Below, one piece after another: positions 5,886-32,779 of a stretch of 64,000 bases of DNA (position 1 is the stretch's first letter; every line of letters begins with the position of its first letter). The DNA comes from Planctomycetota bacterium (GTDB taxonomy: Bacteria > Planctomycetota > UBA8108 > UBA1146). The notes under the pieces are model-generated. The model was given only the letters and a program-made list of their open reading frames with translations, was not told the DNA's origin and searched no databases. The stretch spans positions 6,739-70,738 of the forward strand of contig DUAN01000157.1 in assembly GCA_012960845.1 (NCBI GenBank). Direction: 5' to 3'. Position numbers and translations under genes: made by a program.

Positions 5886-7904
5886 ATGATGGGCTGGACC
5901 GCTGACAACCCCCGATCGGAGGCACCCTTGGCCCGAAGTGGCACCATTCAACGATTGAGCGCACTGGCCATCCTCGGCTCGGCTCTGCTGATCATTCTGC
6001 CCTGCCTCGAGGTTGCGGCGGATGTACGACTTCGGATGAAGACTGGAGAGGTTCTTGAAGGTCGGATCTATGACCTGGGACATGAGTACCTGGAACTGAG
6101 TGGGCGTCTCGGATCGAACTTGATTCTCAAGAGAGATGTGAAGCACTGGAGCCTCAAGACCACCACCAGGCCCGAGCCCAAGGGAATCCTACTGATCCTG
6201 AGTGAGGGACTCGAAGTCGGAGGAGATGTCCGATTTGATACCGGATCCAGTGAGTGGGTCGTGAATCTCGGCAACGGTACCGCAAGATATCTGGATTCGA
6301 TGGTCGCGCGAACCATCGACCCCAATGGGATCTGCAGCGATGACCGATTTACGGTGCGAGCAGGCTTCGAAGATCGGACGGCTCGTGCCATCCAGGGGGT
6401 GATCGCAGGTGATTCCATCGAACGAGAGGACGGAATCCAGTACCTTCGATCCTCCGGTTTCTTTGGCCTGAGACCCATCGAAGAAGAACTCGAGAAGAGC
6501 GATCACCCGATCCTCCGGAGATTACAACTGGAAGAGCGTTTCCGCATGTCGCTGCCAGCGGGGATCACAGAGGCCAGGCCCCACTTCCTCGAGCAGATCA
6601 TGAAAGGCTCGTCGAGAGAGCAGGTCGGAATTCTGCGGGAGACGCTGCTGGAGCACGGATCGGATCTCTACCCGCTGCTCGGGCTGTTGCTACTCGACGA
6701 TGCGCAGAGTGCAGAAGTCCGGACCTTTGCCATCGATGTCTTGCAGCGAACGCACAGCATCCGGGAACTGGTGACCGCATGGGAAGCCTCGGATGGTCAG
6801 GGTCAGTTGGCACTGGCCATCGCGCTCGGAGAAAATGGAGTGCACGTTGGAATTTCAACCTTGATCGAGGCGTTGGAACTGGAAGAGCGTGCCGCACGGG
6901 CCATCGCGGCCAAGAAATTATACGAATACACCGGAGAACGGTTCGATTTTGATCCCGATGGGGAACTCGCCGCTCGTGGCGAGTCGATCCGCAAGTGGCG
7001 TGCTTGGTGGGACAAAAACCGCGACCGGATCGAGGGGCTCGCAGTGGCGGTCCTCGATGGTAAGGACACGAGTGAAGAGCGCCGAAAGGCATCGGATCTG
7101 TGGCGCAGAGGACTTGCGGCGGAAGCGGACCAGCGATTTGAACTGGCCGAGCGGTTGTACAAGCAAGCGATCGAGATCGATCCGACCGCCATGGGGCCCT
7201 TTGTCAGCCTGGGAATTCTTCAGTACCAGCACTTCATTGATTACGATGCGGCACTCGAGTCTCTCCACCGGGCCATCGGTCGTGAGCCTGGCATGGGGGA
7301 CGGAGTCAATGAACGGGTTTGCTACTACCACATCGGCCGGATCTATCAATTTGGTCTCGATTTCGACCGTGCTCGCGGGGCCCTGCTGAAATCGGTGAGC
7401 CTCGATCAGAATTACTCCGCCGCCTGGTACGAGTTGGGCCGGATCCAGTATGAAGAGGCTCTTCTGGCGGGTGGGGCGGTCGAGGTCCGCAGGGAACGGC
7501 TGGAGGCCGCCCGAGAGACCTTCATGAGCGGCATCATGGCGCTGACCCGGTATCGAAGGGGACTGATCGTGGTCGATCGCACCAATCTCCCCTTTGACAA
7601 TGCCTTGCCCTTCTCGACCCGTGACCACAACCGAACGCTGAGAGAATTGCGGATCAGGATCCTCGAGGAACTGGGCCGATTCCGTGGTCGTATCGGAGCC
7701 ATCTCGCTGATCCTGGACGAGCCCAAGAGAGTGCTCCAGGAGTATCGAGAAGCCACCACCGAGGGCTCGGTGACCGAGGAACTGGAGAAACTGGTCAGCG
7801 TCGCTCGAGTCATTCTTCAGTCCAGACCGGGAGATTCCGGAGAGCCGGTTCCCACCGGAGGCACCGAGGATGACGGCGAAATCGACGCAGGAGAGGGAAG
7901 ATAG
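5886..7904 (+). CDS. HEAT/TPR-repeat protein with N-terminal signal-anchor, function unknown
   Basis: The ATG at 5886 is preferred over the upstream TTG. A hydrophobic N-terminal segment is followed by HEAT-like and TPR-like repeats (e.g. AIEIDPTAMGPFVSLGILQY..., AAWYELGRIQYEEA). Confidence 0.5.
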   Translation: MMGWTADNPRSEAPLARSGTIQRLSALAILGSALLIILPCLEVAADVRLRMKTGEVLEGRIYDLGHEYLELSGRLGSNLILKRDVKHWSLKTTTRPEPKGILLILSEGLEVGGDVRFDTGSSEWVVNLGNGTARYLDSMVARTIDPNGICSDDRFTVRAGFEDRTARAIQGVIAGDSIEREDGIQYLRSSGFFGLRPIEEELEKSDHPILRRLQLEERFRMSLPAGITEARPHFLEQIMKGSSREQVGILRETLLEHGSDLYPLLGLLLLDDAQSAEVRTFAIDVLQRTHSIRELVTAWEASDGQGQLALAIALGENGVHVGISTLIEALELEERAARAIAAKKLYEYTGERFDFDPDGELAARGESIRKWRAWWDKNRDRIEGLAVAVLDGKDTSEERRKASDLWRRGLAAEADQRFELAERLYKQAIEIDPTAMGPFVSLGILQYQHFIDYDAALESLHRAIGREPGMGDGVNERVCYYHIGRIYQFGLDFDRARGALLKSVSLDQNYSAAWYELGRIQYEEALLAGGAVEVRRERLEAARETFMSGIMALTRYRRGLIVVDRTNLPFDNALPFSTRDHNRTLRELRIRILEELGRFRGRIGAISLILDEPKRVLQEYREATTEGSVTEELEKLVSVARVILQSRPGDSGEPVPTGGTEDDGEIDAGEGR

Positions 7905-8110
7905 AGCACCCAAGGATGGTGGCATCCGGCTCGGGTCTCGTTGCACCCCTATCTTTCGGCGGCTAACCTGCCCCATCGTACCCAGGCGTCACGGATTCCC
8001 ATCCTGTTCGCCAAGATCCAGCGGCATTGCACTCCCTCCAGGTCGAGATCGTGGTTCGATACGATCGATGTGAATGGCAAGGGCAGGCGGCGGCGGAAGA
8101 AGGAGCTGAT

Positions 8111-9283
8111 TTGAAGATCCACGAGTACCAGGCGAAGCAACTGCTCGCTCGGCATCAGATTCCGGTGCCCGCCGGTCGAATGGCGAGAGACGTCGATGAG
8201 GCGCTCGCCGCTGCCGAGGAGCTGGGCAGTGGCCCCTGGGTGGTCAAGGCGCAGATTCATGCGGGAGGGCGAGGAAAGGGCGGCGGAGTTCGTGTCACTT
8301 CCACCATGGAGGAGTGCGAGGCTGCCATCCGGTCGATCCTGGGAATGCAACTGGTGACTCACCAGACCGGGCCGGAAGGTCAGGAGGTTCGTACGCTGCT
8401 CATCGAGGAGGGGTGCGACATCGCTCGTGAAATCTACTGTGGAATGGTGATCGACCGTGCTCGAGAGAAGCCGGTCCTGATGGCCAGCGCTGAGGGTGGA
8501 ATGGACATCGAGGAAGTCGCTGCCAAGCGGCCGGAAGCGATCTTCTTCGAGGAGATCGATCTCGATGCGGGGCTCTCCGAGGAAGCAGCACGGTCGGTGG
8601 CACAGCGGCTCGACTTCGAGGGGAAAACCGCCGATCAATTTGTCGATATCGTCTGCAAGCTGGCCCGGGCCTTTGTTGAGGAAGATTGCTCCCTTGCCGA
8701 GATCAACCCGATGGTGGTGACTGGCAGCGGAGATGTGATCGCCCTCGATGCCAAGATCAACTTCGATGACAACGCGGATTTCAGGCATCCAGAACATGCC
8801 CAACTGCGTGACCTGGACGAAGAGGATCCTCGAGAGACCCGAGCTGCCGAGTGGGACCTCTCCTACGTTGGAATGGAAGGAACCATCGGGTGCATGGTCA
8901 ATGGAGCGGGACTCGCCATGGCAACGATGGACATCATCAAGCTCCATGGTGGTGAACCCGCCAACTTCCTCGATGTGGGTGGAACGGCCACCGCAGAGAG
9001 AGTTACCGAGGCATTCAAGATCATCCTCGAGGACCCCAACGTGAAGGCGATTCTGGTCAACATTTTTGGCGGCATCATCCGCTGCGATCTGATCGCAGAA
9101 GGGATCGTGCAGGCCGCACGAGAGACCAATCTTCAGGTTCCACTGGTGGTTCGACTGGAGGGGAACTCGGTGGCGGAGGGCCATGCGCTTCTGGAGAGTT
9201 CGGGAGTCGATGTCATCGCCGCTGCGGATCTGGCAGATGCCGCAAGGAAAGCGGTGGCTGCTACGGAAGGAGTGAGCCGATGA
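8111..9283 (+). CDS. sucC: succinyl-CoA synthetase beta subunit
   Basis: The TTG start has an AGGAG 6 nt upstream. It contains [12 protein letters not shown], the ATP-grasp motif [15 protein letters not shown] and the CoA-ligase C-domain. Confidence 0.9.
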
Positions 9284-23531: not shown

Positions 23532-23705
23532 GCGGCTCTGGGCGGCCGGATGAGTTGTCGATAATCGCTCCATTCCGATATATCTGTGACTTCTGGCCCG
23601 CTCGACTTGAAAAATCGAGCCATCTCTTCGATGATGCAGGGTGTCGGAGGGTGCCAGAGGGGATCTCCTTCGACCTCGGTGATCTTCCCCTGGCCAGGAG
23701 TCCTG

Positions 23706-26700
23706 ATGCGTCCGGTCCGATTTGTCACCGCGGCCAGTCTCTTTGATGGCCACGACGCTTCCATCAACATCATGCGACGGGTCCTTCAGGACCGGGGCGC
23801 TGAGGTAATTCATCTGGGGCACAACCGGAGTGCCGAGGAGATCGTCGATACCGCAATTCAGGAAGATGCGGATGCCATCGCAGTGTCTTCCTATCAGGGT
23901 GGTCATAACGAGTTCTTTCGGTTCATGAGAGATCTTCTGGTGGAGAAGGGATGCCCCTGGATTCGTATCTTTGGCGGTGGCGGAGGTGTCATCGTTTCCG
24001 AAGAGATCGCCGCATTACACGAGTATGGTATCGAGCGGATCTATTCTCCAGAGGATGGTCGAGACATGGGCCTCGAGGGGATGATTCTTGACATGCTCAA
24101 ACGCGTCGGCTCCATCGAAGGAGCGGCGGACCGCGGAGCGGCACTTCCGCAACGAATCACCAGGGTCGAACTGGGAGAAGAGATCGAGACCAAGCCACAG
24201 GTAGTTCCGGTTGTGGGGTTAACTGGAACCGGTGGTGCAGGGAAATCATCTTTGACCGATGAACTCTTGAGAAGGTTGCTGCAAGATTTTCCGGATCGAA
24301 GATTTGCAGCGATCACCGTCGATCCGACCAAGAGGAGAACCGGCGGAGCATTACTGGGAGATCGGATTCGGATCAACAGTGCCGACAATCCCAGGGTATA
24401 TATTCGATCGCTGGCGACCCGGTCGAGTGGAGTAGAGGTTCCCGAGGCGATCCGAGGAGCGGTGGATCAACTCCGTTCAGAAGGCTTTGATCTGGTGTTG
24501 CTGGAGACATCCGGAATTGGCCAGGGGGACAGCCGGATCACCGATATCTCCGATCTGTCCGTCTATGTGATGACCCCTGAGTATGGAGCCGCAACTCAGC
24601 TCGAAAAGATCGACATGATCGATTTCGCCGACATCGTCGTCCTCAACAAGTTCGATCGTCCCGGTGCTCGTGATGCCATTCGAGATGTTCGCAAACAATA
24701 CCGGAGAAGCCGCGGTATTTTTGATCCAGACATCCGTGACGAGGATCTACCGGTATTCGGAACTACCGCCAGTCACTTCAATGATGAGGGGGTGGAACAG
24801 TTCTACACTCATCTTCTCGCCAGCCTGACCTCGGAAGAATCGGATCGATGGAACATCTCTCATGATCGCATCTCGGTAGACGGTGCCAGCAGGCCTTCGC
24901 CGATCCCACAGGAACGAGTGGGATACTTGCTTGAAATCGCCAATTCGATTCGCGACTACCATCAATGCGTCGAAAGCTCAGCACAGTTATCTGACGATGC
25001 CGAATCTCTGGGAAGAAGTTCGGAATTGATCGAGGCGGAAAACCCGGAGGCGAGCGCTCGATTGAGTGAGATGGCGATGACATTGCAGGGATCCATCGAT
25101 CCTCGAGTCCTCCAGTTGATTACACAGTGGCCAGCGCTGGCGGAGTCCTACCGGCAAGAGGAACTGGTTTTCCAGGTTCGAGATCGGGAAGTCCGGGAGC
25201 CACTTCAGTTCGAGTCTCTCTCGGGAAGTCACATCTCGAGGGTCTCCCTCCCCACCTTCAAGGGGCATGGAGATCTGACCCGCTGGTTGATGAAAGAAAA
25301 TCTGCCAGGGCACTTCCCCTTCACCGCAGGTGTCTTCCCATTTCGCCGAAGAGATGAGCACCCCAAGAGGATGTTCGCGGGTGAGGGACCTCCCGAGAAA
25401 ACCAACCAGAGGTTTCACTATCTGTGCGAAGGAGAGGACGTTCATCGGCTCTCCACTGCTTTCGATTCAGTCACGCTGTATGGCGAGGATCCAGATCCAC
25501 GTCCCGACATCTACGGAAAGGTCGGTGAAAGCGGCGTCAGCATCTGCAATCTGGAGGACATGAAGAAGTTGTACGCAGGTTTCGACCTGTGTGCTGCGAG
25601 TACCTCGGTCTCGATGACCATCAATGGTCCAGCGCCGATGATCCTGGCGATGTTCTTCAATGCGGCCTTTGACCAGCAGATCGAACTCCATCGCCAGAAA
25701 ACGGCATCTGATCCGTCTCCTGCTCAACTGGAGGAGATCAGATCTCATGTTCTTCGCAGCGTCCGGGGAACGGTACAGGCGGACATCCTCAAGGAGGACC
25801 AGGCGCAGAACACATGCATCTTCAGCACCGATTTTGCGCTGCGGATGATGGGGGATATCCAGCAGTTCTTCATCGATGAACAGGTCAGGAACTACTACTC
25901 GGTATCGATCAGCGGATATCACATCGCCGAAGCGGGTGCCAATCCCATCACGCAATTGGCTTTCACCCTGGCAAACGGTTTCACCTACGTTGAGAACTAC
26001 CTCTCACGAGGAATGTCGGTCGATGACTTCGCCCGCAACCTCTCCTTCTTCTTTTCCAACGGTCTCGATGCGGAATATTCCGTTCTGGGGAGAGTCGCTC
26101 GGAGGATCTGGGCCATCGCCATGCGTGATGTGTACGGCGCAAATGAGCGCAGTCAGAAGTTGAAGTACCACATCCAGACTTCAGGGCGATCGCTCCATGC
26201 GATGGAGATTGATTTCAACGATATTCGAACAACGCTTCAAGCGTTGATGGCGTACTACGACCAGTGCAATTCACTTCATACCAATGCCTTTGATGAGGCA
26301 ATTACCACTCCGACCCAGGATTCAGTTCGCAGAGCGATGGCCATCCAGTTGATCATTGCCGAGGAACTGGGGCTGGCCCGAAACGACAACCCGATTCAGG
26401 GTGCCTTCATCACCGATGAACTGACAGAACTGGTAGAAGATGCGGTGCTGGAAGAATTCCGACGCCTGCATGAACGTGGTGGCGTGTTGGGAGCGATGGA
26501 AAGACAGTACCAGCGCTCGAAGATTCAGGAGGAATCACTCCTCTACGAGCACAGAAAGCACACTGGCGAGCTTCCCATCGTCGGCATCAACACATTCTTG
26601 CGTCCCGGTGGCAGCCCGCAACCGAGTCATATCGAACTGCGCCGTGCGACTGCGGATGAGAAGAAGCAACGGATGGTGGATCTGGGGCAGTTCCATGATG

Positions 26701-26864
26701 ACCATCGTAGTGAAGTGGAGACTGCACTGCAGAGTTTGCAGCAGGTGGCCCTTACTGGTGGAAACATTTTTCGTGAGTTGATTGAAACGGTGCGAGTCGC
26801 AAGTCTCGGGCAGATCACACATGCGCTCTATCAGGTCGGTGGAAGATACCGCCGCAACATGTGA
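23706..26864 (+). CDS. icmF: fused isobutyryl-CoA mutase IcmF (B12-binding domain + MeaB-like G-protein + mutase TIM-barrel)
   Basis: The N-terminal B12-binding domain carries DGHD...G. The central P-loop GTPase reads VVGLTGTGGAGKSSL, and the C-terminus is a methylmalonyl-CoA-mutase-type substrate domain. About 1050 aa is typical of IcmF. Confidence 0.85.
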   Translation: MRPVRFVTAASLFDGHDASINIMRRVLQDRGAEVIHLGHNRSAEEIVDTAIQEDADAIAVSSYQGGHNEFFRFMRDLLVEKGCPWIRIFGGGGGVIVSEEIAALHEYGIERIYSPEDGRDMGLEGMILDMLKRVGSIEGAADRGAALPQRITRVELGEEIETKPQVVPVVGLTGTGGAGKSSLTDELLRRLLQDFPDRRFAAITVDPTKRRTGGALLGDRIRINSADNPRVYIRSLATRSSGVEVPEAIRGAVDQLRSEGFDLVLLETSGIGQGDSRITDISDLSVYVMTPEYGAATQLEKIDMIDFADIVVLNKFDRPGARDAIRDVRKQYRRSRGIFDPDIRDEDLPVFGTTASHFNDEGVEQFYTHLLASLTSEESDRWNISHDRISVDGASRPSPIPQERVGYLLEIANSIRDYHQCVESSAQLSDDAESLGRSSELIEAENPEASARLSEMAMTLQGSIDPRVLQLITQWPALAESYRQEELVFQVRDREVREPLQFESLSGSHISRVSLPTFKGHGDLTRWLMKENLPGHFPFTAGVFPFRRRDEHPKRMFAGEGPPEKTNQRFHYLCEGEDVHRLSTAFDSVTLYGEDPDPRPDIYGKVGESGVSICNLEDMKKLYAGFDLCAASTSVSMTINGPAPMILAMFFNAAFDQQIELHRQKTASDPSPAQLEEIRSHVLRSVRGTVQADILKEDQAQNTCIFSTDFALRMMGDIQQFFIDEQVRNYYSVSISGYHIAEAGANPITQLAFTLANGFTYVENYLSRGMSVDDFARNLSFFFSNGLDAEYSVLGRVARRIWAIAMRDVYGANERSQKLKYHIQTSGRSLHAMEIDFNDIRTTLQALMAYYDQCNSLHTNAFDEAITTPTQDSVRRAMAIQLIIAEELGLARNDNPIQGAFITDELTELVEDAVLEEFRRLHERGGVLGAMERQYQRSKIQEESLLYEHRKHTGELPIVGINTFLRPGGSPQPSHIELRRATADEKKQRMVDLGQFHDDHRSEVETALQSLQQVALTGGNIFRELIETVRVASLGQITHALYQVGGRYRRNM

Positions 26865-27332
26865 TCAGGTCGATTTTCTTCTCACTGACCAGCCGAGAAT
26901 CGCCACTGCAATGAGCGAAAGCCAGCCGTGTCCCTCGATCCATACCATCGAGTTCTGCGATGAGGTCCAGCCGAGCATGGGGATCAGTACCAGTCCCATG
27001 GCGATCGCCATCAGCCACCAGGAAAGCTGCCCGAGAATCGTCGTATCGACGGCTGGCCACCAGCATCGAATCACCAGCAGTGCAGCCAGCGGGCTCGCGA
27101 CCAGTAGATGCAACTGGAGCCAGTACCCTCTTAACTCATCCCCGACCGGCACGCCGGCAATCGAGGAGATGGTGCAGAGAAATGCCAGGAGCACCGTCCA
27201 GCGGGAGAGTCTCTGGATCACCGGGATTCCTCCTGAATCAACTTCCACAGCCCGAGCAATCCGCCGGAGATCGCCAGCAAGGTACAGATACTGAAGTAGA
27301 TCTTCCCCGCTTCCCTTCCGAGGAAGAGCCAT
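26865..27332 (-). CDS. hypothetical small membrane protein (weakly supported)
   Basis: A Trp-rich hydrophobic ORF sits directly downstream of the cytochrome gene on the same strand. It overlaps the cytochrome 3' end in another frame, so it could be spurious or start internally. Confidence 0.3.
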   Translation of the reverse strand: MALPRKGSGEDLLQYLYLAGDLRRIARAVEVDSGGIPVIQRLSRWTVLLAFLCTISSIAGVPVGDELRGYWLQLHLLVASPLAALLVIRCWWPAVDTTILGQLSWWLMAIAMGLVLIPMLGWTSSQNSMVWIEGHGWLSLIAVAILGWSVRRKST

Positions 27333-28918
27333 GACCAGATCTTCCAGCGACTGGAATCGATGATTCCACTCTCCATCGGAGAGGAGGTGGCTTCGATTTC
27401 GCCAGGGCCAGGCAGGGGAAGAAACGACGATGGACCGATCCTATCCTGCAACCAGCTGCTGGTGGAGGAGTGGCAATCGTTACAGCCACCGGCTCCCAGT
27501 GCGGCTCGTGCAGGTCGCACCGGATGGGAGAGGGCCCAGGACACTGCTTCAGCAGCGGGGGAAGCCGCTGCTTGCAGTTCATCTGCGTCAGTGACCTTCC
27601 ACAGACGGCCGCCGGTGATGAGGATCGCCTCCCTGCCATCTTCCAGCGGTTCCTGTAACTTCTTCAAGGCCTTTACCAGGACCGACGAGGCATTGCTTCC
27701 CTCTATTTGGTCGGACAGTTCCTCGACCAGGTCCGATCGTACCCTCAGAGCACGGCGCAGAAGCGGTCGAAGTTGTGCCGGGGTCAGTGGTGTGATGGTG
27801 CCGTTGGCCTCCAGAACTCCCCAGCCGTCGGGCCAGGTGAGACGGACCGGACTGATCCTCTGCTGGTCATCTCGCTGCAGGAATCCGCCGATGATGCGAG
27901 GTGGGATTCCGCCCAGACGCTCCTGACTCGCTTCTCCGAGTCGGTGGGCACGGGAGGTCCACTGGGCGACAGGGGAGCGCCCCGGACCTGGCCCTGCGTG
28001 ACAGGCGGTACAACTGATTTCTTCGAGGTGGAAGGGGGGGAGTCCCCGGTGTTCCGCCAGCGGCGCGCCGAACAAACCCCCATCCTCGTCGAGGTGGCAA
28101 CCTCGACAGCTGAGGGTGGTCACATCGGTCCCCGAGGGATGAACTTCACCCTCGTAGCCCCGGACCATGTGGTGATCGATTCCCGATCGGTGGCAATCGA
28201 CACAAGAGAGTCCGGCGGCGAGGTGGACATCATCCTGGTGATGCCATCGACGATCGTTCTGTTCATCCAGATCTCGAACCGTGTGGCAGCGAAGGCACGC
28301 CTGACTGCCCGCATCCCCGAGTAAGTTCAATTCCACCTGAGCAGTGGAATCGAAGCGACGGGGATCGAGTTGACCGGAAGTGTCGACCAGCCCGGCAGCG
28401 ACAAAGGGTGCCAGAGATGTATTCCCCGAGTCGATCTGCTCGATGCGTTTGGCGAAGTCGTAGCCACTGGCCAGGTGACAGACAAGGCAATCGGAGTCGT
28501 CGCCGGCTCCAGTATCATGGCGACCAAACTCCTGACTCCACTCTTGCTGGTCGAGGTCCATCGATGGGGGAGAGAGTAATCCAGGCCACTTCCTTCGGTG
28601 AAGTGGCATGCGAGTGGCACTGCGAGGATCGACCAGTATCCATGGCTCGCCGGCACGACCATCGGGTCCTTGTCCAGCATGAAGCCCACCGCTGGCCGCT
28701 TCGACATCATGACAGGGGGCACAACTCTTGCCGAGATGAGGAAGACTATCACTGTTGGAACCGGGATCGATGACCTCACCGCGGGAGTCTCTCAAGGGGA
28801 TCCGGTGCAGGTAAGGATCATCGGAGTCGGTGCGCTTCCAGACCGAGTCCTGTGCGGTGCCGATCGATCCGATCAGCACGGTGGTCATCAGGAATAGAAT
28901 CGCTGGAAGATTATTCAT
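27218..28918 (-). CDS. multiheme c-type cytochrome (7 CxxCH), signal peptide + C-terminal TM anchor
   Basis: The heme motifs are CAPCH, CLVCH, CLRCH, CVDCH, CRGCH, CTACH and CNDCH. It has an N-terminal signal peptide and a C-terminal hydrophobic helix. Confidence 0.8.
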   Translation of the reverse strand: MNNLPAILFLMTTVLIGSIGTAQDSVWKRTDSDDPYLHRIPLRDSRGEVIDPGSNSDSLPHLGKSCAPCHDVEAASGGLHAGQGPDGRAGEPWILVDPRSATRMPLHRRKWPGLLSPPSMDLDQQEWSQEFGRHDTGAGDDSDCLVCHLASGYDFAKRIEQIDSGNTSLAPFVAAGLVDTSGQLDPRRFDSTAQVELNLLGDAGSQACLRCHTVRDLDEQNDRRWHHQDDVHLAAGLSCVDCHRSGIDHHMVRGYEGEVHPSGTDVTTLSCRGCHLDEDGGLFGAPLAEHRGLPPFHLEEISCTACHAGPGPGRSPVAQWTSRAHRLGEASQERLGGIPPRIIGGFLQRDDQQRISPVRLTWPDGWGVLEANGTITPLTPAQLRPLLRRALRVRSDLVEELSDQIEGSNASSVLVKALKKLQEPLEDGREAILITGGRLWKVTDADELQAAASPAAEAVSWALSHPVRPARAALGAGGCNDCHSSTSSWLQDRIGPSSFLPLPGPGEIEATSSPMESGIIDSSRWKIWSWLFLGREAGKIYFSICTLLAISGGLLGLWKLIQEESR

Positions 28919-30098
28919 CGGTGTCGGATGTGGCTTTCACGACCGGGGTTCTCAACTCCTTGTAACCCTGTTGGATCTGCCGCTGGATCGACTCCACCTG
29001 CGAATCCCACCATCGATCCCACTGCTCGGGAGGGGGCGGGTTTGTCGGGCGAACCAACCGAAAACCGACATGGAACGCATCGGTGCACCACCAGATGCTC
29101 TTCGGTAACTGGGGGTCTCGTTTTTGCCACTTGCGGGTCGAGGGATAGCGAGCAGCGGAACGACAGCGCTCCGGATCATCCTGCCAGGAGCCTCCTCGAA
29201 CCACGGCTGGCCAGATCTTTTCGGGCCAGCGCACCGCAGCGGTAGCGGAGACCACCTTGTCGCCGTGGGCTGCATAGCCTTCGGCGAGGTAGCCATCGAG
29301 GGTCCACTCGGCGACATTTCCGTAGAGATCGTGCACTCCCCAGCGATTCGCCTTCAGGGTTCCCACCTTGCGATAGCCAGAGCCGAGGCCTGGGTATCCC
29401 GAATCGGGATCGTCATATTCGCTGTTGTCGAAGAACCAGGCATATTCCGCCAGTCGGGTCGCATCTTCACCGAAAGAAAATGCCGTTTGTTGGCCGCATC
29501 GAGCGGCGTATTCCCATTCCGCTTCGGTGGGCAGACGCAGAAACTGGCCCGTCTTCTTCGACAGCCACTTGGAGAATTGCATCGCTGCGAACTGGGTCAC
29601 ATCGGCGACCGGATAGCCCCCAGCAGTTCCCAGTCCTTCGAGGATGGGTCGGGAATCCTGTTCCCACAGAGGAGTGGGAATACTCACCGCATCGGCCCAC
29701 TCCGGTTGATCCGCCTGGTCACCCGAAATCCTCGTGTCCTGAAGGATGCCGTACTCCTGGCGGAACAGATCGTAGACATCCCAGGTCAACTCGTGCTTCA
29801 TGATGGAGAAGGGACTCACCTTGACGGTCCAGGTCGGCCCTTCGTCGGCAGACCTGCCCTTCTCGGTGGCGGGTGAACCGATGGTGATGGTCTCCGGGTA
29901 GCCATCACTGCCGACCGGTATCGAGACCCAGTGAATTCGCTGCTTCGATCCCGGAATCTGCTGGCTCTGGATCTCCGGTTCATCCGCGTTCGCAGTCATT
30001 CCGGTGAACAGGAGGATGACACCGAGCCAGATGGACGTCGGTGGTCTTTGCGTCAGAGTTCTCAGCGTCAGAGTTCTCAGCGTCAGAGTTCTCTTCAA
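28911..30098 (-). CDS. FGE/SUMF1-domain protein (formylglycine-generating-enzyme-like fold), secreted
   Basis: It has LPTEAEWEYAARCG, HDLYGNVAEWTLDGY and VRGGSWQDD, all hallmark FGE-sulfatase-domain motifs. The canonical C-terminal Cys pair of true FGE is absent (single Cys in PERCRSAARYP). Its stop overlaps the cytochrome start by 8 nt. Confidence 0.8.
   Translation of the reverse strand: MKRTLTLRTLTLRTLTQRPPTSIWLGVILLFTGMTANADEPEIQSQQIPGSKQRIHWVSIPVGSDGYPETITIGSPATEKGRSADEGPTWTVKVSPFSIMKHELTWDVYDLFRQEYGILQDTRISGDQADQPEWADAVSIPTPLWEQDSRPILEGLGTAGGYPVADVTQFAAMQFSKWLSKKTGQFLRLPTEAEWEYAARCGQQTAFSFGEDATRLAEYAWFFDNSEYDDPDSGYPGLGSGYRKVGTLKANRWGVHDLYGNVAEWTLDGYLAEGYAAHGDKVVSATAAVRWPEKIWPAVVRGGSWQDDPERCRSAARYPSTRKWQKRDPQLPKSIWWCTDAFHVGFRLVRPTNPPPPEQWDRWWDSQVESIQRQIQQGYKELRTPVVKATSDTDE
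30051..30093. repeat. 2.9 copies of a 15-bp tandem repeat (cgtcagagttctcag) inside the 5' end of the FGE-like CDS
   Basis: Read directly. On the coding (minus) strand it encodes (LRTLT)x3 between the Met-Lys-Arg start and the signal-peptide h-region. Confidence 0.9.
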
Positions 30099-30187
30099 GG
30101 GTGTCCTTCCAGGCTCTGCCTCGCTGGGTCCCAGCAGTTTTCGGCAGGGTGGTGCCCCCGGTAGCCGCGGGCGGGTACAAGGCAGAC

Positions 30188-31369
30188 ATGATGTCGTACT
30201 TCCTCCCTCCAGTCCAGATGTCCCCTATCGCTCCTCAGGGCATCTCGGCTCCTCAGGCCATCTCGGTGGATACTCCGAGGAATCGGGTTCGGTCGGCCCC
30301 GTTGCTGCTGTCGGCATTTCTCCTGCTGATGTGTGGCTGTCAATCGCCCCTTCACAGGGTTCACCTCGATCATCCCTCGATGGGAACTCGGTTTCAGATC
30401 ACCGTGTTCCACTCCGATCGAGATCATGCCCAGGCGTGGGTCCGTACCGCGTGGAACCGAGTCGATCAGATCGATCAGGCCTGTTCTGACTGGAAGGAAT
30501 CGAGCGAGTTGCGTCAACTGTGTCGCTCGGCGCCACATCTGAAACCCGTGGTGGTGAGTACGGACCTCCTTCAGGTGATGAAAAAAGCACTGGAAATCGC
30601 GCGGGCCAGCGAGGGTGCGTTTGATCCGACAGTCGGTGGATTGGTACGGTTGTGGCGACGATGTCATCGTGCCGGTCGATTGCCTCGAGATCATGAGGTG
30701 GAAAAAGCTCGCAAGGGAATGGGAATCGATGGAATCATCATCGATGAGGCCGCCAGTACCATCCAGCTCCTGCGAGAAGGTGTCGCCATCGACCTGGGTG
30801 GGATTGCCAAGGGGCACGCTGTGCAGGAAGTTTTTCAATTACTGGAGCAGCAGGGGATCCGCCATCTGATCATCGATGGAGGGGGCGACCTGGTGCTGGG
30901 GGATCCTCCTCCAGGACGTCGAGGATGGCGCATAGCCATCGGGACATCGAATCCGCAGGCCCCGTCAAACGGCACCCCCTTGAAACTGCTGATCCCCGGG
31001 CGGGCAGCGGTGGCGACCAGCGGAGATGCCTCTCGGTTCACCGAGATCGAAGGGCGCAGATACAGTCATATTGTCGATCCGAGCAGCGGGTTGGGAATCG
31101 AAGGACCCCATCAGGTCACCGTCATCTCGACCGACGGTGCCATCGCAGACGCCCTCGCCACCGCAATCTCGGTACTGGAGCCGCAGGCTGCGTCCGATCT
31201 TCTACAACGATTTCCCGGAAGTGCTGCACTGCTGGTCGATCCCCGCGATGGATCTCATCAGGTGCTCGGGGAGATGCCTCTGGCACCGAACAGTGATGGA
31301 TCGGTTGTGGAGAAGGGCGCTTCTGCTCTGTATTATGAGAAGTGTCCGCCGGGCTCGGTCGGCCAATGA
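30188..31369 (+). CDS. apbE: FAD:protein FMN transferase (ApbE family) lipoprotein
   Basis: It has a lipobox LLLMCGC and the motifs MGTRFQITV, FDPTVGGL, AIDLGGIAKGHAV and ATSGD. It is divergent from the FGE-cytochrome operon. Confidence 0.8.
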   Translation: MMSYFLPPVQMSPIAPQGISAPQAISVDTPRNRVRSAPLLLSAFLLLMCGCQSPLHRVHLDHPSMGTRFQITVFHSDRDHAQAWVRTAWNRVDQIDQACSDWKESSELRQLCRSAPHLKPVVVSTDLLQVMKKALEIARASEGAFDPTVGGLVRLWRRCHRAGRLPRDHEVEKARKGMGIDGIIIDEAASTIQLLREGVAIDLGGIAKGHAVQEVFQLLEQQGIRHLIIDGGGDLVLGDPPPGRRGWRIAIGTSNPQAPSNGTPLKLLIPGRAAVATSGDASRFTEIEGRRYSHIVDPSSGLGIEGPHQVTVISTDGAIADALATAISVLEPQAASDLLQRFPGSAALLVDPRDGSHQVLGEMPLAPNSDGSVVEKGASALYYEKCPPGSVGQ

Positions 31370-31387
31370 AGATGAAATGAGGGTTCG

Positions 31388-32779
31388 ATGGATCAGCACG
31401 ATGTAGATCAACTCGATGTAGATCAGCACGATGTAGATCAGCACGATGTAGATCAGCACGATGAAGATCAGCAGCATGAAGTTCAAACCAACTCAACATC
31501 CAGCGGAATCGATCGTCGTGTCTTTCTCAGCGCATCTGGCGGAGCACTGGCGGCTGCGGCACTGAGTTCGACCGCTCTCCAGGGGTTGCCCTCGATGATT
31601 CACAACTCAGTCGATGAGACGATTCGTGTCGGACTGGTCGGTTGTGGGGGACGCGGTACCGGAGCGGTGATCAATGCGCTCAACGTGGAACCGAGGGCGA
31701 AACTGGTTGCGATGGGAGACATCTTCAAGGATCGCCTCGATAGTTCACTGAAGAATTTGCTCGACGAGGAGCACGCCGATCGAATCGATGTTTCGGAAGA
31801 GATGCAATTCTCTGGTTGGGACAGTTTCGAGAAGGTGATCGATAACTGTGATCTGGTCATCCTGGCGACCACTCCGCACTTCCGACCGGAGCAGATCGAG
31901 AAGGCAGTGGCTGCAGGGAAGCACATCTTTGCCGAAAAACCGGTGGCCACCGATGCTCCGGGAGTGGCGAGGGTCAGGGCAGCGGCACGGATCGCCGACC
32001 AGAAGGGACTCACCCTGGTCAGTGGCCTCTGCTATCGCTACCAGGATGCGAAGCAACAGACCATCGATCGGGTCCACGACGGATCGATCGGAGACATCAT
32101 CACCCTTCAATGTACCTACAACACTGGAGGTCTATGGCACAGGGGTCGCAAGGATGAGTGGAGCGAAATGGAGTACCAGGTGCGAAACTGGTACTACTTC
32201 AACTGGCTCAGCGGCGATCACATCACCGAGCAAAGTATCCATAGCATCGACAAGATGATGTGGGCGATGAAGGATGCTCCGCCGGCCAAGTGTAGCGCCA
32301 GTGGAGGCCGAACGTGCCGGACCGAAGAGAAGTGGGGAGACATCTACGACCACTTCAATTGCGTGTTCGAATGGGAGAATGGCACCAAGTTGTTCCACTC
32401 CTGCCGCCAGTGGAGTGGCGCAGATGGTGACGTGAGTGATTATGTTCATGGAACCCGAGGAACCGCCGCAATCCAGCGTCATCGCATCGATGGAGAGGTC
32501 AACTGGAAATTCTCCGGTTCCCCCAACGACATGTACGACGCCGAATGGGTCGAGTTGTTTCGATCAGTCAAGGGTGAACGCGACCGCATCAACAATGGCG
32601 AGTACATGTGCAACAGTACACTGGCGTCGATCCTCGGAAGGACTGCAGCCTATACCGGGAAGACCATCACCTGGGATGAGATGACCAGCAGTGAACTGGA
32701 TCTGAGCCCGGTGGCCTATGAATTTGGTCCAGCTCCGGCGGTTGAAATCGCCAGGCCTGGAACCACCAAGTTCAGTTAA
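31388..32779 (+). CDS. Tat-exported Gfo/Idh/MocA-family NAD-binding oxidoreductase
   Basis: A twin-arginine motif DRRVFLSASGGALAAAAL is followed by a Rossmann fold IRVGLVGCGGRG and a Gfo/Idh/MocA C-terminal domain. It lies 18 nt downstream of apbE. Confidence 0.8.
   Translation: MDQHDVDQLDVDQHDVDQHDVDQHDEDQQHEVQTNSTSSGIDRRVFLSASGGALAAAALSSTALQGLPSMIHNSVDETIRVGLVGCGGRGTGAVINALNVEPRAKLVAMGDIFKDRLDSSLKNLLDEEHADRIDVSEEMQFSGWDSFEKVIDNCDLVILATTPHFRPEQIEKAVAAGKHIFAEKPVATDAPGVARVRAAARIADQKGLTLVSGLCYRYQDAKQQTIDRVHDGSIGDIITLQCTYNTGGLWHRGRKDEWSEMEYQVRNWYYFNWLSGDHITEQSIHSIDKMMWAMKDAPPAKCSASGGRTCRTEEKWGDIYDHFNCVFEWENGTKLFHSCRQWSGADGDVSDYVHGTRGTAAIQRHRIDGEVNWKFSGSPNDMYDAEWVELFRSVKGERDRINNGEYMCNSTLASILGRTAAYTGKTITWDEMTSSELDLSPVAYEFGPAPAVEIARPGTTKFS
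31391..31480. repeat. six 15-bp tandem repeats (gatcagcacgatgta-like) at the 5' end of the Gfo/Idh/MocA CDS
   Basis: Read directly. It encodes an acidic DQHDV pentapeptide repeat preceding the Tat motif. The reverse strand gives an artefactual ORF (ADLHR repeats). Confidence 0.9.

Follow-up and report, generated by a model that had tools for sequence, protein, structure and literature searches.

When an ApbE flavin transferase is encoded among redox proteins of which none carries the canonical flavinylation motif, which of them receives the flavin, and what does the flavin do there? This question is raised by a five-gene cluster in the window, as we call the whole 64-kb stretch (64,000 nucleotides, nt) of contig DUAN01000157.1 from a Planctomycetota bacterium that we analysed. 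On one strand, genes for a secreted protein resembling the formylglycine-generating enzyme (FGE), a heptahaem c-type cytochrome and a small membrane protein follow one another; divergent from them are the genes for ApbE and for an oxidoreductase of the Gfo/Idh/MocA family (Gfo). Comparative evidence indicates that the FGE-like protein is itself most likely the ApbE substrate, with flavin mononucleotide (FMN) probably carried on Thr142. A sequence-only reading made earlier had described the five genes with their domains, the seven CxxCH motifs of the cytochrome, an overlap of 8 nt between the FGE-like and cytochrome genes (28911-28918) and a spacing of 18 nt between the apbE and Gfo genes (31370-31387). 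The list of open reading frames (ORFs), Pfam searches and the coordinates bear out this layout. The features needed below are:

26865..27221, minus strand: small membrane protein with revised start, 118 residues, GTG start codon
27218..28918, minus strand: heptahaem c-type cytochrome, 566 residues
28911..30098, minus strand: FGE-like protein, secreted, FGE-sulfatase fold, 395 residues
29673..29693, minus strand: codons of D136-A-V-S-I-P-T142, the proposed flavinylation motif (translation checked)
30041..31369, plus strand: ApbE ORF, open from a GTG at 30041, with an internal ATG at 30188
31388..32779, plus strand: Gfo/Idh/MocA oxidoreductase, 463 residues

The FGE-like protein as candidate ApbE substrate

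The FGE-like protein matched the Pfam family FGE-sulfatase (PF03781, 5.8e-33) and was modelled by AlphaFold2 with a predicted local distance difference test score (pLDDT) of 91. Foldseek returned PvdO as the top structural match (PDB 5hha, 9e-17), with the FGEs of human, T. curvata and S. coelicolor at 1e-13 to 1e-11. PvdO was also the closest relative in sequence (1.9e-15), followed by true FGEs, TvpA, PorK/GldK, ToxD and EgtB. The score against the NCBIfam PvdO model (NF051459), 78.4 bits vs a cutoff of 500 bits, lies below equivalog level, and none of the five proteins of the cluster reached a curated NCBIfam cutoff. The segment following the RGGSW motif, RGGSWQDDPERCRSAAR, aligned without gaps to PorK and PvdO and gave no detectable alignment to true FGEs, so that the Cu-binding Cys-x4-Cys site is absent. 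Cys312 is kept in the close clade and is Leu or Val across the wider subfamily. Judged by its sequence, the protein is thus of a non-canonical, PvdO/PorK-like non-catalytic type, in agreement with the sequence-only reading, which had noted the missing FGE Cys pair. An N-terminal signal sequence, ...IWLGVILLFTGMTANA/DEPE, predicts an extracytoplasmic location; relatives fused to haem domains (see below) are anchored by a NapC-type N-terminal helix.

ApbE modifies the motif D-x-x-[S/T]-G-A-[S/T], in which substitution of Gly by Ala or of Ala by Val still allows ~50% flavinylation (ApbE review, PMC12052999). A search for the canonical form D..[ST]GA[ST] in the five proteins and across the six frames of the window brought up no instance in the cluster, and when 88 related loci were searched likewise, no family with the motif recurred. 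We therefore took an approach based on positional homology. Among 117 close members of the FGE-like subfamily, the motif D136-A-V-S139-x-P-T142 is near-invariant, with Asp at position 1 in 116 of the 117, Ser (112) or Thr (3) at position 4, and Thr (115) or Ser (2) at position 7. The window sequence, D-A-V-S-I-P-T, fits the canonical motif at positions 1, 4 and 7 and differs at positions 5 and 6. More distant relatives were collected by a metagenome scan seeded with distant FGE-like members and annotated with family hidden Markov models. When these were aligned with hmmalign, the same columns held the canonical motifs DAVSGAT, DAISGAT, DAITGAT, DGISGAT and DVVSGAT, a register also obtained with MAFFT. 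Intermediates (DAISGPT, DGVTAAT) occur as well, then DAV[ST]RPT and the window type DAVS[IL]PT. In relatives fused to a NapC domain the columns read D-A-[IV]-[ST]-G-A-T in 119 of 120 cases. Beyond the subfamily, FGE-fold proteins are gapped at these columns and are without Gfo or ApbE neighbours. The AlphaFold2 model places the motif region, with high confidence, in a strand (138-140) and a coil ahead of a helix (146-156).

These alignment columns point to the FGE-like protein as the probable target of ApbE. They support the earlier proposal that the neighbouring ApbE signals a covalently flavinylated extracytoplasmic protein, and they supply a probable target where that reading could find none with an FMN-binding domain in the window.

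ApbE itself matched PF02424 (2.6e-70) over profile positions 1-264 of 266. With the ATG at 30188 as the likely start, its N-terminus, ...LLLSAFLLLMCGC, has a lipobox-like LLMCGC after a hydrophobic stretch, so that the protein is probably an FAD:protein FMN transferase (FAD, flavin adenine dinucleotide) and a lipoprotein, as had been proposed. The apbE gene is the divergent neighbour of the FGE-like gene in the window and lies within 3 kb of it in 20 of 21 genome loci. Its presence follows the motif: of 38 loci in which motif position 5 is not Gly, 26 had apbE within 3 kb, compared with 0 of the 10 in which it is (Fisher p = 1e-4); the metagenome loci alone gave 9 of 20 vs 0 of 10 (p = 0.013), both tests taking the loci as independent, with no phylogenetic correction. 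In the neighbour-joining analysis, ApbEs encoded next to FGE-like genes fell into a single group that excluded eight of the nine ApbEs of Gfo-cytochrome clusters without an FGE-like gene. Because an adjacent apbE occurs only where Gly-5 is lost, and because the FGE-adjacent ApbEs group together, the data fit a non-canonical motif that would be served by a dedicated, co-evolved ApbE, and a canonical one served by a housekeeping ApbE.

The divergent pair of apbE and FGE-like gene persists while the other genes change. In two loci (L091 and L092) it is accompanied by an arrangement of FGE-like gene, Gfo gene and cytochrome b562 gene; in L093 it consists of ApbE and two FGE-like genes only, without Gfo; and in L090 four tandem FGE-like genes and a cytochrome/cytochrome b pair lie beside apbE. 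The four paralogues of L090 (4724-10125) stand ahead of the cytochrome and carry the motifs DAVSFPT, DAVSLPS, DAVSIPT and DAVSIPT, which suggests that one cytochrome serves several flavin carriers or several partners specific to different substrates. L091 also contains, divergent from its FGE-like, Gfo and cytochrome b562 genes, an ORF (6489-8858, minus strand) for a 789-residue lipoprotein that combines an ApbE domain with a Cys-type sulfatase (CAPTR signature). This fusion was the sole hint of a sulfatase link.

The Gfo enzyme and the haem proteins

The Gfo protein matched GFO_IDH_MocA (PF01408, 8.4e-14) and the C-terminal GFO_IDH_MocA_C3 (PF22725, 9e-09), and contains the motifs GCGGRG (Rossmann), FAEKP and DHITEQSIH. 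Among solved structures it comes closest to inositol dehydrogenases and a sugar 3-ketoreductase (~1e-10 to 1e-11); against the NCBIfam BT_2158 family it scored 40 bits vs a cutoff of 750 bits. A DRRVFL motif (31511-31528) agrees with the predicted export by the twin-arginine translocation (Tat) pathway, and motifs of the xRRxF[LIVM] type were present in 54 of 57 Gfo genes adjoining FGE-like genes. By analogy with its family, the protein presumably holds tightly bound nicotinamide adenine dinucleotide (phosphate), NAD(P), and acts as the substrate-oxidising subunit. Among the 28 motif-bearing FGE-like genes of the metagenome sample that were flanked by 2 kb or more on either side, a Gfo gene lay within 3 kb of 23 (82%), usually directly downstream, while apbE was found in 7 of the 28 loci and the heptahaem cytochrome in 1. 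Thus, the near-universal primary partner of the FGE-like subfamily is the Gfo/Idh/MocA oxidoreductase. Sugar isomerase-like AP_endonuc_2 genes often neighbour the Gfo/FGE-like loci of relatives.

At the start of the window's Gfo gene, a repeat (31391-31473) adds 25 residues, with DQHDV five times, before the twin-arginine motif. It is missing in L009, where the Gfo protein starts MDQQHEDQTSS... It looks like a strain-variable repeat in the n-region of the signal peptide, and could affect expression or export.

Around the heptahaem cytochrome, three types of context were distinguished. The first is that of the window, with the Gfo gene downstream of apbE on one strand and, divergently, the FGE-like, cytochrome and cytochrome b genes in this order. 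It recurs among L001-L023 and L058, at 36-94% cytochrome identity, and no locus with a cytochrome at least 36% identical to the window's lacked it; the flanks are unrelated in L004 and L021. In the second type, Gfo, cytochrome and cytochrome b genes follow each other with apbE a few genes off and without an FGE-like gene; hosts are Sumerlaeota, Acidobacteriota, Phycisphaerae, Cytophagia, Verrucomicrobia and Calditrichia. The third is the cytochrome pair alone amid unrelated genes, as in Pirellulaceae. Because the first type is conserved while the other two have no FGE-like gene, the adjacency of FGE-like protein and cytochrome is real and conserved, yet limited to one Planctomycetota clade that includes the window. 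The heptahaem cytochrome and cytochrome b, in turn, are an independent conserved module. The earlier suggestion that the FGE-like protein works with a multihaem cytochrome therefore stands in part: conservation of context and the haem fusions of relatives are in its favour, but the main partner is Gfo and the cytochrome pair is a separate module.

Clusters of the second type with apbE were seen at L006, L007, L008, L027, L046, L051, L065, L070 and L083-L085, with a PMT_2 glycosyltransferase and a small F5_F8_type_C-like protein as recurrent neighbours. The stand-alone pair occurs in the cultured Pirellulaceae Rhodopirellula baltica (L062) and Rubripirellula obstinata (L045), and also at L056, L067 and L071; its neighbours include a peroxiredoxin, a rhodanese and an ABC transporter.

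The CxxCH motifs of the window's cytochrome are at residues 66, 144, 208, 239, 271, 303 and 479. Hydropathy confirmed an N-terminal hydrophobic signal and a C-terminal transmembrane anchor (537-562). Pfam matches were partial only, to Cytochrom_NNT (PF03264, 1.5e-09, residues 123-252, above the gathering score) and to Cytochrome_C7, and the napC_nirT model TIGR02161 gave 30.9 bits vs a cutoff of 310.6 bits. For the sequence-only reading, membership of the protein in a well-characterised family such as NapC/NrfH, next to an unrelated neighbour, would have spoken against its proposal. What we found is a partial NapC/NirT stretch in a protein that is not a NapC/NrfH, beside a conserved neighbour. 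Homologues keep all seven CxxCH motifs, the C-terminal helix and seven further invariant His residues, so that bis-His ligation is possible for each of the seven haems, in keeping with a role in electron transfer. Relatives were present in at least 550 species-level genomes, which include members of Planctomycetota, Phycisphaerae, Verrucomicrobiota, Sumerlaeia, Calditrichia, Cytophagia and Acidobacteriota, with R. baltica and R. obstinata among the cultured hosts. The closest genome record is the marine Planctomycetota metagenome-assembled genome L009 (93% cytochrome identity).

Directly downstream of the cytochrome, ORFs of one homologous family were found in 58 of 80 loci. The window's member had been described as a small Trp-rich membrane ORF. 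Its presence and Trp content (8.5%) hold, while its start at 27332 requires revision: a GTG at 27221 shares the 4 nt GTGA with the stop codon of the cytochrome gene, so that the gene almost certainly starts there and encodes 118, not 155, residues. This length agrees with gene calls of 121-123 residues in relatives. Only H38 and H98 are invariant in the family (51-sequence alignment, 17% mean identity), and 26 of the 51 members matched PF01292 (cytochrome b561 / Ni_hydr_CYTB; best 4.8e-14), with a few others matching DUF4405 or Ferric_reduct. A Pfam search of the window's protein gave no match; it has three to four hydrophobic segments and exactly the two invariant His residues. By its family, we classify it as a diverged cytochrome b561-type membrane protein and presume that it is the haem-b, quinone-side partner of the heptahaem cytochrome. 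Two cytochrome homologues (P0045 and P0100, alignment A1) have a long C-terminal multi-helix extension with His residues, which looks like a fusion of the cytochrome to its cytochrome b partner.

Fusions connect the FGE-like domain to haems more directly. In at least 14 sampled metagenome loci, an N-terminal membrane helix and a full NapC/NirT tetrahaem domain (PF03264, 1e-25 to 6e-30) are fused to the FGE-like domain, and the fusion gene is always followed by a Tat-Gfo gene (L138-L152, L155). Such fusions are very abundant, with more than 120 protein clusters. The best 120 of them (P0241-P0360) all combine PF03781 with PF03264 in ~511 residues at 77-94% identity, and 119 of them have four CxxCH motifs. 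One such cluster is named from Bacteroidetes. The fused protein is annotated just as FGE / tetrahaem cytochrome. L095 contains a fusion to the monohaem PSCyt1 (Planctomycete cytochrome c) domain, other relatives have one or two CxxCH motifs, and the cytochrome b562 gene of L091 and L092 lies downstream of Gfo. The same functional slot is thus filled by NapC-type, PSCyt1, b562 or heptahaem plus b-type cytochromes, which speaks for electron exchange between the FGE-like domain and haems. We also considered a common origin of the window's cytochrome and the NapC domain of the L140 fusion; the BLASTP match (E = 0.003) is driven by the haem motifs and is no evidence for it.

A proposed periplasmic electron-transfer chain and its alternatives

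On balance, we lean narrowly towards a membrane-linked periplasmic dehydrogenase in which a flavinylated FGE-fold protein couples the Gfo enzyme to the cytochromes. Tat would export the Gfo enzyme in folded form together with its bound NAD(P), and the enzyme would oxidise a substrate of the sugar or polyol type, as suggested by the AP_endonuc_2 neighbours in relatives and by the nearest structures. The FGE-like protein would be exported by Sec, and the lipoprotein ApbE would join FMN to Thr142 by a phosphoester bond. This FMN could then accept a hydride from the NAD(P)H in Gfo and give off single electrons, which the C-terminally anchored heptahaem cytochrome would bring to the membrane and the small cytochrome b-type protein would hand to the quinone pool. 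Overall, electrons would pass from substrate to NAD(P) in Gfo, FMN on Thr142, the seven haems c, haem b and quinone. Family knowledge and architecture suggest Tat export, substrate oxidation and the steps from cytochrome to quinone, and comparative evidence suggests the flavin step; flavinylation of Thr142, a complex of Gfo and FGE-like protein, the direction of flow and the substrate are what we infer.

We regard as evenly poised the broader proposal that such systems form a widespread family of periplasmic respiratory dehydrogenases, in which an FGE-fold subunit with ApbE-installed FMN couples a Tat-exported Gfo enzyme to haems and quinone. Flavinylated proteins would then gain a new structural class in the FGE-sulfatase domain, and lineage-specific ApbEs would have co-evolved for x-Pro-Thr. 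The family would be hosted by Planctomycetota and Bacteroidota, while Verrucomicrobiota and other phyla have related cytochrome modules.

Several points weigh against this chain. The window's motif is non-canonical, with Ile-Pro in place of Gly-Ala, and to our knowledge neither the acceptance of x-Pro-Thr by an ApbE nor flavin binding by an FGE-fold protein has been demonstrated experimentally. The association of apbE with the motif carries the assumption of independent loci given with the tests above. Gfo-cytochrome clusters without an FGE-like gene keep apbE nearby, and a relaxed motif search there found no target; because apbE persists in these clusters, ApbE may act on another substrate in such systems. 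The direction of electron flow towards quinone, finally, is argued solely from midpoint potentials.

Electrons could instead flow from quinol through cytochrome b and the heptahaem cytochrome to a flavinylated FGE-like protein that acts as a periplasmic reductase, or as an oxygen or radical scavenger, with Gfo independent or an alternative donor. The NapC/NirT domains fused to relatives are classically quinol dehydrogenases that feed periplasmic reductases, the heptahaem and b-type pair resembles the quinol oxidase CbcBA, L093 has ApbE and FGE-like genes without Gfo, and the cytochrome pair exists without any dehydrogenase partner. We nevertheless consider this direction unlikely: a Tat-exported Gfo enzyme adjacent to the FGE-like gene in 82% of the metagenomic loci fits a donor subunit, reduction of bound NAD(P)+ by quinol is strongly uphill by established midpoint potentials, and we identified no candidate acceptor-binding site. 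It is quite unlikely that the FGE-like protein is redox-inert, as a scaffold, a lectin-like substrate-binding subunit or an assembly factor, with D..S..T as a structural feature and the ApbE target elsewhere. The nearest relatives, PvdO, PorK/GldK and TvpA, are indeed non-catalytic or poorly understood FGE-fold proteins, and both the non-canonical motif and the retention of apbE in FGE-less clusters without a recognisable target agree with such a role. Against it stand the canonical motif at the equivalent position of all but one of the 120 fused relatives, the restriction of motif positions 4 and 7 to Ser and Thr, and the fusion to haem domains, which argues for a redox role. In addition, the pair of apbE and FGE-like gene stands alone in L093, and no other motif-bearing ORF was found in the window or in related loci.

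That the heptahaem cytochrome and cytochrome b form an autonomous OTR-like, quinol-dependent reductase of small molecules, linked to the FGE-like operon merely by shared regulation, is distinctly improbable. Seven invariant distal-type His residues for seven haems leave no obvious open coordination site, and translational coupling is indicated on both sides of the cytochrome gene by the overlaps of 8 nt with the FGE-like gene and 4 nt with cytochrome b. Moreover, in other phyla a Gfo gene immediately precedes the same cytochrome, and other cytochrome types replace it beside FGE-like and Gfo genes. The fold itself could point to an unusual formylglycine-forming sulfatase maturase that uses flavin and haem electrons instead of copper and O2; PVC-group (Planctomycetes-Verrucomicrobia-Chlamydiae) bacteria are generally rich in sulfatases, and the ApbE partner in L091 is fused to one. 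We hold this highly improbable, since the Cu-binding Cys pair is absent, no sulfatase gene is present in the 64-kb window and one is nearby at only three of ~100 FGE-like loci (L091, L108, L139), and the partner found throughout is a Gfo dehydrogenase of the sugar type, frequently accompanied by AP_endonuc_2 genes. As a general explanation, sulfatase maturation was rejected on the rarity of sulfatases near the loci and their absence from the window.

Relation to known systems and remaining features

ApbE-dependent extracytosolic electron transfer is already known as a kind of system. The cluster shares with the described ApbE-flavinylated systems (PMC8238504; Huang et al. 2024, PMC11334425) a periplasmic apbE beside the presumed substrate, a seven-residue motif that ends in the modified Thr or Ser and is canonical in many FGE-like relatives, and membrane cytochromes linking to the quinone pool. 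It differs from them in the FGE-sulfatase (C-type-lectin-like) fold of the carrier, which those papers do not mention, in the Ile-Pro for Gly-Ala of the motif, and in a Tat-exported NAD(P) nicotinoprotein as partner. The available part of the supplements of Meheust et al. contained no FGE-sulfatase entry. Our literature search found no paper linking ApbE or flavinylation with FGE-sulfatase, PvdO or SUMF1, and none linking Gfo/Idh/MocA or NapC with FGE. This agrees with the impression of the sequence-only reading that the combination of FGE-like protein, multihaem cytochrome and ApbE had not been described. What is new lies in the fold of the proposed carrier, in a variant motif that comes with its own ApbE, in the association with a Tat nicotinoprotein and in the heptahaem/cytochrome b module.

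PvdO, like the FGE-like protein, is periplasmic and without the FGE catalytic cysteines. It is needed for the last oxidation step of pyoverdine, with cofactor or acceptor unknown, and its NCBIfam name is dihydropyoverdine dehydrogenase. In contrast to the FGE-like protein, it has an unrelated gapped stretch at the D..S..T motif, and the window is without pyoverdine genes.

CbcBA of Geobacter sulfurreducens comprises a seven-haem cytochrome c with a C-terminal anchor, whose gene immediately precedes that of CbcB, a b-type cytochrome with four helices and of the hydrogenase/thiosulfate-reductase kind; homologues are reported from Calditrichaeota, Bacteroidetes and Verrucomicrobia (bioRxiv 10.1101/2021.04.15.440034). 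The window's pair has the same architecture, a heptahaem c-type cytochrome with C-terminal transmembrane segment followed by a b-type gene, a likeness drawn from description, not sequence. CbcBA provides 3+1 His (CbcB plus the CbcA anchor) for two b haems, whereas the window's family has two invariant His and none in the cytochrome anchor, so that its cytochrome b probably binds one haem. CbcBA is a quinol oxidase, while the direction proposed for the window's pair is towards quinone. With NapC, NirT, NrfH and CymA, the cytochrome shares the PF03264 match noted above, and FGE-like relatives are fused to complete domains of this kind. Unlike the NapC/NirT proteins of ~200 residues with four haems and an N-terminal anchor, it has 566 residues, seven haems and a cleavable signal, is anchored at its C-terminus and has its cytochrome b as a separate protein.

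The Gfo protein resembles the glucose-fructose oxidoreductase of Zymomonas and the glycoside 3-dehydrogenase BT2158 (PMC8121099) in its Rossmann and Gfo C-terminal domains, twin-arginine signal, periplasmic location and presumably bound NAD(P). Those nicotinoproteins use a second sugar or an unidentified acceptor, whereas the window encodes a dedicated flavoprotein/cytochrome chain alongside. For Bacteroides BT2158, Liu et al. 2021 postulated an unidentified second sugar as acceptor, and what accepts the electrons of Tat-exported glycoside dehydrogenases of the Gfo type is a recognised gap (PMC8121099). Such Gfo enzymes, including those of the glycoside 3-dehydrogenase type, are abundant in polysaccharide-degrading bacteria. 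The proposed chain, if correct, would explain how these periplasmic Tat-exported nicotinoproteins are re-oxidised, and its direct route to quinone would allow periplasmic sugar oxidation to conserve energy. Thousands of "formylglycine-generating enzyme" annotations in PVC bacteria and Bacteroidota would then denote electron-transfer flavoproteins, not sulfatase maturases. More folds would be modified by ApbE, and its motif might widen to x-Pro-Thr, which bears on flavin-tagging technology. The heptahaem-c/cytochrome-b module is now defined across its host genomes, and the cultured Rhodopirellula and Rubripirellula species are usable for genetics.

Promoter-like sites did not exceed background (2 seen vs 2.2 expected); terminator-like sites (7 seen vs 3.6 expected) did not define the operon ends. 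The remaining features, with the repeats called by Tandem Repeats Finder, are:

26865..27332, minus strand: small membrane ORF with its unrevised start, 155 residues (ORF list)
30050..30093, strand unassigned: 15-nt tandem repeat, 2.9 copies, at the 5' end of the FGE-like ORF
31391..31473, plus strand: 15-nt tandem repeat, 5.5 copies, at the 5' end of the Gfo ORF

The repeats in the FGE-like ORF (30050-30093), which encode TLTLR, sit in the divergent control region. Directly downstream of the cluster, positions 23586-26864 (plus strand) encode a 1092-residue, IcmF-like fusion of B12-binding domain, MeaB GTPase and methylmalonyl-CoA mutase. The synteny of this fused mutase with PrkA, DUF444 and SpoVR genes is kept in L001 and L002.

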